A stretch of 1,647 nt of DNA from Escherichia coli (GTDB taxonomy: Bacteria; Pseudomonadota; Gammaproteobacteria; Enterobacterales; Enterobacteriaceae): assembly GCF_003334765.1 (NCBI RefSeq), contig NZ_QOWT01000077.1; one strand, written 5' to 3'. Shown piece by piece: positions 329-1,343 of the stretch. Within the stretch, counting starts at the first letter, position 1, and each line of letters opens with the position of its first letter. A program made the translations under genes and the position numbers. The notes beneath the pieces are model-generated. The model made no database searches and was not told the DNA's origin. It was given only the letters and a program-made list of their open reading frames with translations.

Positions 329-364
329 AACCGGAAGCCACATTGAGCACTTACGCACTGATGC

Positions 365-389
365 GGGGTGTCGGGGTGAAGCCCTGACC
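365..389. repeat. Left arm of 25-bp inverted repeat (inverted partial copy of the bom arm)
   Basis: GGGGTGTCGGGGTGAAGCCCTGACC is the reverse complement of 613-637 at 24 of 25 positions (mismatch at 377/625). The two arms are separated by 223 bp. Confidence 0.9.
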
Positions 390-394
390 AAGTG

Positions 395-432
395 GTAATC
401 GTATCGGCGTGCATGCGCGGTTATACGATTAC
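395..432. repeat. Hairpin-forming inverted repeat (10-bp perfect stems GTAATCGTAT / ATACGATTAC, 18-nt loop containing GCATGC)
   Basis: 395-404 is the exact reverse complement of 423-432. It lies between the left IR arm and the tandem repeats. Confidence 0.8.
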
Positions 433-539
433 ACATCCTGTCCCGATTTCTGAGGCGTTTTAACGGTGAACGGACGGCAAAAACACGATGGAGCTGTTGA
501 ACGTGAAAACCACGAAATCTGGCAAAAATCACGGCTGGC

Positions 540-581
540 GAGGCTTGCATAGGAGTAAGCGAGGCTTGCATAGGAGTAAGC
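540..581. repeat. Perfect tandem direct repeat, 2 x 21 bp (GAGGCTTGCATAGGAGTAAGC)
   Basis: 540-560 and 561-581 are identical. On the minus strand the repeat begins exactly at the predicted nick (GCTTACTCCTATGCAAGCCTC twice). Confidence 0.95.
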
Positions 582-640
582 CAGTATACACTCCGCTATC
601 GCTACGTGACTGGGTCAGGGCTTCGCCCCGACACCCCCAA
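577..640 (-). other. ColE1/pMB1-type oriT (bom) with predicted nick between 580 and 581 on the minus strand
   Basis: The minus strand reads GGGGGTGTCGGGGCGAAGCCCTGACCCAGTCACGTAGCGATAGCGGAGTGTATACTGGCTTA. From memory this matches the pBR322 bom region (GGGTGTCGGGGCGCAGCCATGACCCAGTCACGTAGCGATAGCGGAGTGTATACTGGCTTA) with only about 3 substitutions. The nick is placed by analogy to the CTGG/CTTA context. The pBR322 sequence is recalled, not aligned. Confidence 0.75.
613..637. repeat. Right arm of 25-bp inverted repeat (part of the bom/oriT)
   Basis: GGTCAGGGCTTCGCCCCGACACCCC pairs with 365-389. Confidence 0.9.
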
Positions 641-641
641 A

Positions 642-666
642 GGGCGTTGCGTTGCACGCAACACCC
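642..666. repeat. Hairpin (10-bp stem with one mismatch, loop TTGCA) flanking the oriT
   Basis: 642-651 GGGCGTTGCG pairs with 657-666 CGCAACACCC. The loop and right arm contain CACGCAACA (655-663), which recurs at 781-789 next to the rep promoter. Confidence 0.7.
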
Positions 667-866: not shown

Positions 867-1343
867 ATGTTTATTGATTCAGAAAAACGACTGAAACAAC
901 TTTCAGATGAGGCAAAGAAAAACACCGAGGATCTCGAAGAAGCAAAGAAAAATTCAAGGTTTACACAGGTATCCCCAAAAGGTTGGGAACGTGTTCGAGA
1001 GCTGCTGAAGGATAGCCAAGGCATATCAGCACTGAAGCTGTACTCATTTTTAGCGGAGCATATCGATCCTACGTGTGGCGCTGTCGTTGCGGATCAGCAA
1101 TTCCTAGCTGAAAAACTTGGAGTTAGCAGAAGCACAATTATTCGGTGGCTCAATTACTTAGAATCAAAAAATGCATTAGTTAGAATCCCCGTTGCTGGTA
1201 AGGTTTGTGCGTATGCCCTCGATCCACATGAAGTCTGGAAGGGATACAACACTACGAAAAACCATGCAGCGTTTGTCACTAAAACACTGGTCAACAAAGA
1301 CGGTGATATTCAGCGCCGAATCATGGCCATGTTTTCAAATTGA
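867..1343 (+). CDS. Putative plasmid replication initiation protein (small winged-helix/HTH Rep), 158 aa
   Basis: ATG at 867 with a Shine-Dalgarno AGAGGG at 853-858 (8-nt spacer) and TGA stop at 1341-1343. It is the only long ORF without Arg/Pro/Trp-rich low-complexity composition. The C-terminal half has an HTH-like segment (QQFLAEKLGVSRSTIIRWLNYLESKNALVRIP) typical of winged-helix DNA-binding domains of plasmid initiators. It lies just downstream of an AT-rich tract and palindromic repeats. No HUH or catalytic-Tyr motifs, so not a rolling-circle Rep. The Rep assignment rests on context and motif, not on a homology search. Confidence 0.8.
   Translation: MFIDSEKRLKQLSDEAKKNTEDLEEAKKNSRFTQVSPKGWERVRELLKDSQGISALKLYSFLAEHIDPTCGAVVADQQFLAEKLGVSRSTIIRWLNYLESKNALVRIPVAGKVCAYALDPHEVWKGYNTTKNHAAFVTKTLVNKDGDIQRRIMAMFSN

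Follow-up and report, generated by a model that had tools for sequence, protein, structure and literature searches.

Two adjacent and identical 21-mers in the window (the whole stretch of DNA analysed here, 1,647 nucleotides) appear to be a very recent tandem duplication of the 21 nt with which the transferred strand begins at a ColE1-type oriT, carried by a relaxase-less plasmid of the pKL1 family. Comparison with related plasmids suggests that this duplication is a recurrent event anchored at the nick, and misjoining by an MbeA-type relaxase acting in trans is our best explanation for it; we put the probability of this reading at about one half. The object as such is an ordinary short tandem duplication at a known oriT and in a known plasmid family. 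What is unusual is its recurrence at the nick site with fixed end points.

Plasmids that carry an oriT but no relaxase ('oriT-only' plasmids) are abundant among Enterobacteriaceae and rely on the relaxases of other plasmids; what is known of the accuracy with which relaxases terminate transfer on such foreign substrates comes almost entirely from engineered constructs. A nick-anchored duplication with at least four origins and the same end points each time would be a simple natural read-out of relaxase termination; if this is true, relaxase fidelity in nature could be measured directly from plasmid sequences. In a literature search of limited scope, no account of a short duplication arising naturally and repeatedly at an oriT nick came up. 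Duplicated plasmids of the G variant (see below) are already in public databases, and no paper remarking on them was found in that search.

Host plasmid

The window comprises a circle of 1570 bp whose first 77 bp are repeated at the end (positions 1571-1647 are the same as 1-77); this terminal repeat looks like an untrimmed assembler overlap at k=77. The circle belongs to the pKL1/Col(MG828) family of cryptic Enterobacterial plasmids, whose members usually measure 1549-1552 bp and hold one copy of the 21-mer; pKL1 itself (NC_002145) has 1549 bp, i.e. 1570 minus 21. With the window as query, 335 PLSDB records reach a coverage of 80% or more. The window shares the replicon, repA, and both oriTs with pKL1, pJJ1886_1, and other Col(MG828) plasmids. 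Its sequence is the 1549-bp T-type consensus with 21 bp added, whereas pKL1 and about 98-99% of the relatives have a single 21-mer. The features referred to below are as follows.

540-560 and 561-581, plus strand: the two 21-mer copies, both GAGGCTTGCATAGGAGTAAGC, with zero mismatches
538-581, no strand: the full perfect period-21 run of 44 bp, i.e. two units plus 2 nt of GC microhomology
560-580, minus strand: nick-proximal 21-mer copy, reading CTTACTCCTATGCAAGCCTCG, in the register that begins at the putative nick
539-559, minus strand: nick-distal 21-mer copy, absent in the single-copy relatives L001, L010, and L011
577-584, minus strand: ColE1-type nick octamer CTGGCTTA, with the putative nick between plus-strand positions 581 and 580
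581-646, minus strand: 5′ (recognition) half of the ColE1/MOB-HEN-type oriT, from alignment with ColE1 (NC_001371.1)
364-449, plus strand: second oriT, of the I-complex type (IncI/K/B/O; NikA/NikB), convergent with the first and outside the duplication
734-781, no strand: inverted and direct repeats upstream of repA, a RepA operator/oriV region of the pKL1 type
867-1343, plus strand: repA, encoding a 158-aa winged-helix initiator (Pfam HTH_36) and no HUH nickase

The only gene on the circle is repA. Its DNA sequence is the same as in relatives that encode WP_000469298.1, and its product, identical or nearly identical to the RepA of pKL1 and preceded by upstream repeats, is that of a pKL1/Col(MG828) replicon. 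No relaxase or nickase gene and no mbe genes were found on the window plasmid; therefore, any relaxase acting on it does so in trans. MOB-suite labels the relatives of the window 'mobilizable'. In being small, cryptic, devoid of a relaxase, and equipped with captured oriTs, the plasmid resembles the 'pOriT' plasmids of the pBuzz/pCERC7 type, which are mobilised in trans (PMC9282650, PMC11389934). pBuzz carries two inversely oriented oriTs (PMC9282650, PMC11389934), whereas those of the window are of two different types, ColE1 and I-complex; pBuzz is also described as a rolling-circle plasmid, whereas the RepA of the window is an HTH initiator.

The two oriTs

The ColE1-type oriT was recognised from the nick octamer on the transferred strand together with a homologous recognition and inverted-repeat region 5′ of the nick. 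About 66 nt on the 5′ side of the nick are nearly identical to ColE1 (NC_001371.1), and divergence starts a few bases past the nick. The bom region of ColE1 and pMB1 (MbeA, MOB-HEN) thus has the same octamer (CTGG/CTTA, the slash marking the nicked bond), the same upstream sequence, and the same relative strand as the window; it differs from the window in that similarity on the 3′ side of the nick ends after about 10 nt and that the mbe genes are absent from the window. Varsaki et al. reportedly found in 2003 that ColE1 is cut at 5′-(1469)CTGG/CTTA(1462)-3′, and these coordinates match exactly the position of CTGG/CTTA in the ColE1 record NC_001371.1. The octamer CTGGCTTA is the ColE1 sequence that holds the cleavage site of the relaxase MbeA (PMC5703827). 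From the reported position, the octamer of PMC5703827, and the matching ColE1 coordinates, on which the exact G/C dinucleotide rests, we infer a nick between window positions 581 and 580.

The second oriT (364-449) matches about 1,900 conjugative plasmids. In NZ_CP027339.1, 15 bp separate the matching oriT from a nikA-like mobA and a MOBP relaxase gene downstream of it. The nick sites of both oriTs converge on the segment that contains the 21-bp repeat.

Position and register of the duplication

The preliminary description had reported a perfect 21-bp tandem duplication at 540-581 that begins at the predicted nick and whose second copy recreates a G/CTTA junction. The two copies are indeed identical, and the period-21 run reaches a TRF score of 88 with 100% matches; a perfect match of adjacent 21-mers within 1.6 kb would arise by chance with a probability of the order of 1e-9. 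GC flanks the unit on either side, which extends the period-21 identity to 538-581 and leaves two to three possible registers for the repeat unit. In the register 560-580/539-559 (plus-strand positions), the unit begins exactly at the G/C of CTGG/CTTA, so that the start at the nick holds within the register ambiguity, the register given earlier being 1 nt off. The backbones of L008 and L016/L017, where the flanking microhomology is just 1 nt, pin the register to at most 1 nt.

Read on the minus strand, the array is ...GGAGTGTATACTGG/CTTACTCCTATGCAAGCCTCG/CTTACTCCTATGCAAGCCTCG/CCAGCC, also written as ...GCGGAGTGTATACTGG/CTTACTCCTATGCAAGCCTCG/CTTACTCCTATGCAAGCCTCG/CCAGCC. The contexts at its boundaries are ...TATACTGG/CTTA, ...AAGCCTCG/CTTA, and ...AAGCCTCG/CCAG. 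The novel joint made by the duplication is CCTCG/CTTA (sequence AGGAGTAAGCGAGGCTTGCA), which forms the 5′ junction of the nick-distal copy between plus-strand positions 560 and 559 and is the recreated G/CTTA. The reciprocal joint, which would leave no copy, reads GGCTGG/CCAGTATAC on the plus strand.

Because 21 is the smallest default k-mer of SPAdes, and the window ends in a terminal overlap of the k=77 style, the repeat might have been made by an assembler; other family records also contain untrimmed overlaps (of 28, 33, and 77 bp). The 21-bp duplication is distinct from the 77-bp overlap and lies inside the window, away from the contig ends, and ordinary reads span a 42-bp array. An artefact is also unlikely because the same duplication occurs in six other records from several laboratories and of several record types, once as three copies. 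With seven such assemblies at hand, we regard an assembly origin as extremely improbable.

Copy number among relatives

A survey of homologous plasmids for copy-number variation, as proposed earlier, found one, two, and three copies among the relatives. Junction-specific 40-mers, which single-copy plasmids are unable to match under megablast, served as probes. The T-variant joint of the window was absent from PLSDB and from the RefSeq complete E. coli genomes in this search. The G-variant joint (unit GAGGCTTGCAGAGGAGTAAGC), which also served as positive control, was detected in four PLSDB records with two copies each and in 5 of 5,426 RefSeq complete E. coli genomes; a RefSeq plasmid, pB25FEP-5 (L016), carries three copies. 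The single-copy 41-mer was present in 301 PLSDB records, 127 of which were exactly of the G type. About 98-99% of the arrays consist of one copy and the remainder of two or three. The 21-mer itself varies at 6 of 21 positions among the relatives.

Searches of other collections with the G/T joint pattern gave one match in genome contigs, located on a probable contaminant contig in a Paramuribaculum draft, and none in metagenome contigs. Small open reading frames running through the repeat, in the one-, two-, and three-copy states and in the T and G versions, were never called as genes among 15 billion proteins.

The duplication accounts for the 1570- and 1573-bp variants of the very common 1549- and 1552-bp Col(MG828) plasmids. 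Several other odd sizes in the databases proved to be untrimmed assembly overlaps: family records of 1580, 1582, and 1628 bp, considered as candidates for duplications elsewhere, are of this kind, and one of 1565 bp has no duplication.

Independent origins

Lineage distances from whole-plasmid comparisons separate the duplicated plasmids as follows: (i) the window, with T in both of its two copies, is nearest to two single-copy plasmids, L010 and L011 (1 SNP from either, private to the respective record), and 19 SNPs away from L002/L003; (ii) L002/L003, with G and two copies, are nearest to the single-copy L012 (1 SNP) and 19 SNPs away from the window; (iii) L007, with G and two copies, is nearest to the single-copy pJJ1886_1 (L014; 3 SNPs) and 74-79 SNPs away from the others; (iv) L016, with G, three copies, and the left flank CTGTC, is nearest to the single-copy L017/L018 (3 SNPs) and has a different repA annotation; and (v) L008, with G, two copies, and the left flank CTGAC, is about 9% diverged, and no single-copy relative of it was found (best match 91%). 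L002 and L003 are identical duplicated plasmids, and L007 and L009 share a backbone. The end points of the duplication are identical across the lineages, even where the flanking microhomology amounts to 1 nt. We read this as the same end points having been reached in at least four, and probably five, separate gains, as judged from the sequences. A recent duplication, as had been suggested earlier, agrees with the backbone of the window being 1 SNP from each of its two single-copy neighbours; these SNPs fall outside repA.

A single origin would be the alternative, either as an ancestral duplication spread by recombination or as a long-standing polymorphism that was lost repeatedly. L002, L007, L008, and L016 have the same G-variant unit, and losing one of two perfect 21-mers is easy, both as this alternative would have it. 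The T in both copies of the window, as opposed to G in the others, is not explicable by recombinational import. Two positions to the left of the array, most backbones have G, L016/L017 have T, and L008 has A, and duplicated plasmids carry the flank alleles of their own single-copy relatives. For an array to be imported, crossovers would thus have to fall within its own 21-42 bp, as the SNPs 2 nt away from it in L008 and L016 illustrate. Furthermore, an unstable state could not last across about 9% divergence without selection. Taken together, we consider a single origin very unlikely.

L008 (NZ_CP145633.1, 2078 bp) stands apart in further respects: its best PLSDB relative is 91% identical over 69% of its length, and it has about 500 bp of extra DNA and, in addition, a 144-aa hypothetical open reading frame. 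Its array has two copies, and PLSDB contains no closely related single-copy plasmid.

Slippage and secondary structure

Polymerase slippage, in which no relaxase joins ends and the growing strand, ending in ...CTCG-3′, anneals again at the imperfect repeat CTGG, could generate the same product, perhaps aided by the hairpin GGCTT-N10-AAGCC or by a persistent relaxosome nick that frays the 3′ end. GC microhomology flanks the unit in most backbones, the minus strand holds an imperfect CTnG repeat, and the small hairpin spans the unit, all of which suit this mechanism; once two copies exist, changes from two to three and back and from two to one are expected from it as well. Yet the perfect microhomology at the end points measures 2 nt (GC) in most backbones and just 1 nt in those of L017 and L008, where the end points are nevertheless identical. 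The single-copy plasmid offers about 2,400 pairs of site and period (10-40) with at least 2 nt of microhomology, i.e. equal or better substrates; in 194 of them it reaches 4 nt or more, and in several 8-11 nt. Recurrent duplication was seen at none of these ~2,400 pairs among the family records, and the other internal duplications met in the family were one case of 91 bp and one of 5 bp in a G run.

The hairpin has a predicted energy of -3.2 kcal/mol and a z-score of about -0.2 against shuffled sequence. A structure-driven hotspot was accordingly rejected as a sufficient cause, since the hairpin is no better than those of the shuffles. Simple slippage, which the preliminary description had named as a possible source of the repeat, is thus disfavoured as a sufficient account of the recurrence, given at least four lineages with the same end points, 1-2 nt of microhomology, and ~2,400 alternatives. 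We regard slippage as the full explanation as unlikely, while assigning it an appreciable probability.

Possible function of the array

Positive selection might also produce identical end points, which would then reflect selection and not mutational bias; the duplication could supply a second nick site, duplicate the binding site of an accessory protein, or alter the spacing of the convergent oriTs. The second copy recreates G/CTTA, the unit is placed between two convergent nick sites, and identical duplicated plasmids or a common duplicated backbone occur in more than one isolate (L002 and L003; L007 and L009). However, the second junction, CCTCG/CTTA, is without the conserved 5′ recognition sequence GTGTATACTGG, and for this reason the reading of this junction as a second nick core is weakened. 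Only about 1-2% of the family carry the duplication, always as tips beside single-copy relatives and never as a large duplicated clade. Moreover, selection on spacing or on the number of sites should also tolerate neighbouring end points instead of favouring one exact pair, and the 21-mer is not strongly conserved. The search for promoter or terminator signals created by the duplication gave none in either version, and Rfam matches were at chance level only. On balance, selection for the duplication appears improbable to us.

The array had further been described as selectively maintained or iteron-like. Plasmid iterons are direct repeats of about 20 bp, as here, but the window array has two copies, lies outside oriV, and is unlike the RepA operator repeats at 734-781. 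In pKL1, rep is preceded by oriV and the RepA binding sites, which are adjacent to a 16-bp inverted repeat (PMC3832669), and they correspond to the repeats at 734-781, to which the 21-mer has no similarity. Family-wide conservation is likewise lacking: about 300 relatives have one copy and 5 records two to three. With ~98-99% of the family in the single-copy state and 6 of 21 positions variable, that description is not supported, and the array is best taken as a recent, non-essential copy-number polymorphism and not as an iteron.

A model of relaxase rejoining

The preferred reading, misjoining by a relaxase, would proceed as follows. A ColE1 MbeA-type relaxase provided in trans would cut CTGG/CTTA and remain covalently bound to the 5′-CTTA end, while DNA synthesis from the nick would regenerate the downstream sequence. 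The bound 5′ end would then be rejoined to a 3′ end located 21 nt past the nick, ...GCAAGCCTCG-3′, instead of to ...ACTGG-3′. The product of such rejoining would be ...CCTCG/CTTA..., exactly the joint that is observed. The 3′ end of the pseudo-site, ...CCTCG-3′, has CTnG in common with the true site and comes after the small hairpin. The new joint could itself be a better pseudo-site, so that further expansion, as in the three copies of L016, and collapse would be expected.

Both boundaries were compared across the backbones. A register with the boundary at CTGG/CTTA, the nick predicted from homology, is allowed in all six backbones within an ambiguity of 1 nt; the chance of a boundary landing on one given bond is about 0.3%. 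The distal boundary always follows ...GCAAGCCTCG in the duplicated backbones, while the base after it is C, T, or A depending on the backbone. Its resemblance to the true site is weak: ...CCTCG/ and ...ACTGG/ have CTnG in common and agree at 4 of the last 8 nt.

No nick-anchored tandem repeats with a period of 6-60 were found at 151 other ColE1-type nick sites (metagenome), and the 21-nt nick-anchored duplication was not found in 410 ColE1-type PLSDB records (0 matches to a synthetic junction of the commonest sequence). The effect is therefore specific to the pKL1-type sequence, and the general model is without an independent replicate. The same zero counts disfavour a steric version, in which the footprint of the relaxosome sets the length of 21 nt. 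Involvement of NikB, the I-complex relaxase, was also rejected: on inspection, the plus-strand joints are unlike ATCCTG/T.

Precedents for the separate steps come from relaxases of another family (MOBF) than the MbeA-type enzymes. F TraI joins its bound 5′ end to the 3′-OH formed after nic has been regenerated by extension, and it tolerates variant 5′ sequences in joining when a hairpin is present (PMC3074121). TrwC of R388 acts on degenerate, nic-like targets of 17 bp (PMC3264647). In both R388 TrwC integration and F TraI termination, one end point likewise lies exactly at the nick site. The window joint is the product expected when a protein-bound 5′ end is joined to a non-cognate 3′ end, as in recombination by relaxases and Rep proteins. 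MobA of R1162 recombines between tandem oriTs, and origin-anchored illegitimate recombination occurs with pC194 and M13. These known relaxase and Rep cases concern deletions, integrations, and the resolution of engineered tandem sites, whereas the window holds a natural short duplication.

More tentatively, and with somewhat less confidence than in the main reading, the 21-mer array may be taken as a natural footprint of imprecise relaxase termination, in which an MbeA-type enzyme in trans repeatedly rejoins 21 nt past nic. The array would then represent a relaxase-driven mini-VNTR whose new CCTCG/CTTA joints could be used as nick or rejoining sites.

Other observations on family records

A number of database records deserve comment. 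L004 (NZ_CP069466.1, 1582 bp), L143 (NZ_CP063524.1, 1580 bp), and L144 (CP077360.1, 1628 bp) have end overlaps of 33, 28, and 77 bp, respectively; all three are untrimmed plasmids of 1549-1552 bp, two flagged as linear and one as circular. L009 (NZ_PUED01000348.1, 1333 bp) is a pJJ1886_1-type contig with a two-copy array in the draft genome of Paramuribaculum intestinale DSM 100749, where it is probably an E. coli plasmid contaminant. Its match to the plasmid is limited to positions 520-1333, the remainder deriving from another ColE1-like element (a chimera or a recombinant). NC_004833.1, a 1488-bp PLSDB plasmid attributed to Corynebacterium renale, an unexpected host for a family of Enterobacterial plasmids, matches the 41-mer of the pKL1-type nick region at 100%.

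L006 (NZ_CP069986.1, 2544 bp, linear) combines pKL1-type sequence with a segment encoding a RepL-family protein and is either a cointegrate or a mis-join. In L005 (NZ_CP076691.1, rotated positions about 134-315), an internal tandem duplication with a period of 91 bp lies inside repA at record position 1031. The period is not divisible by 3, and the record lacks an annotated repA CDS; this is either a defective plasmid or an assembly error.

The two oriTs of the window have in common a 29-nt inverted repeat (365-393 and 609-637, 93% complementary). Its core, GGGTGTCGGGG, is similar to GGGTG/GTCGGG, the nick sequence of CloDF13 as given in PMC5935869, and at exactly this CloDF13-like motif L016 carries a 5-bp tandem duplication of GGGTG.
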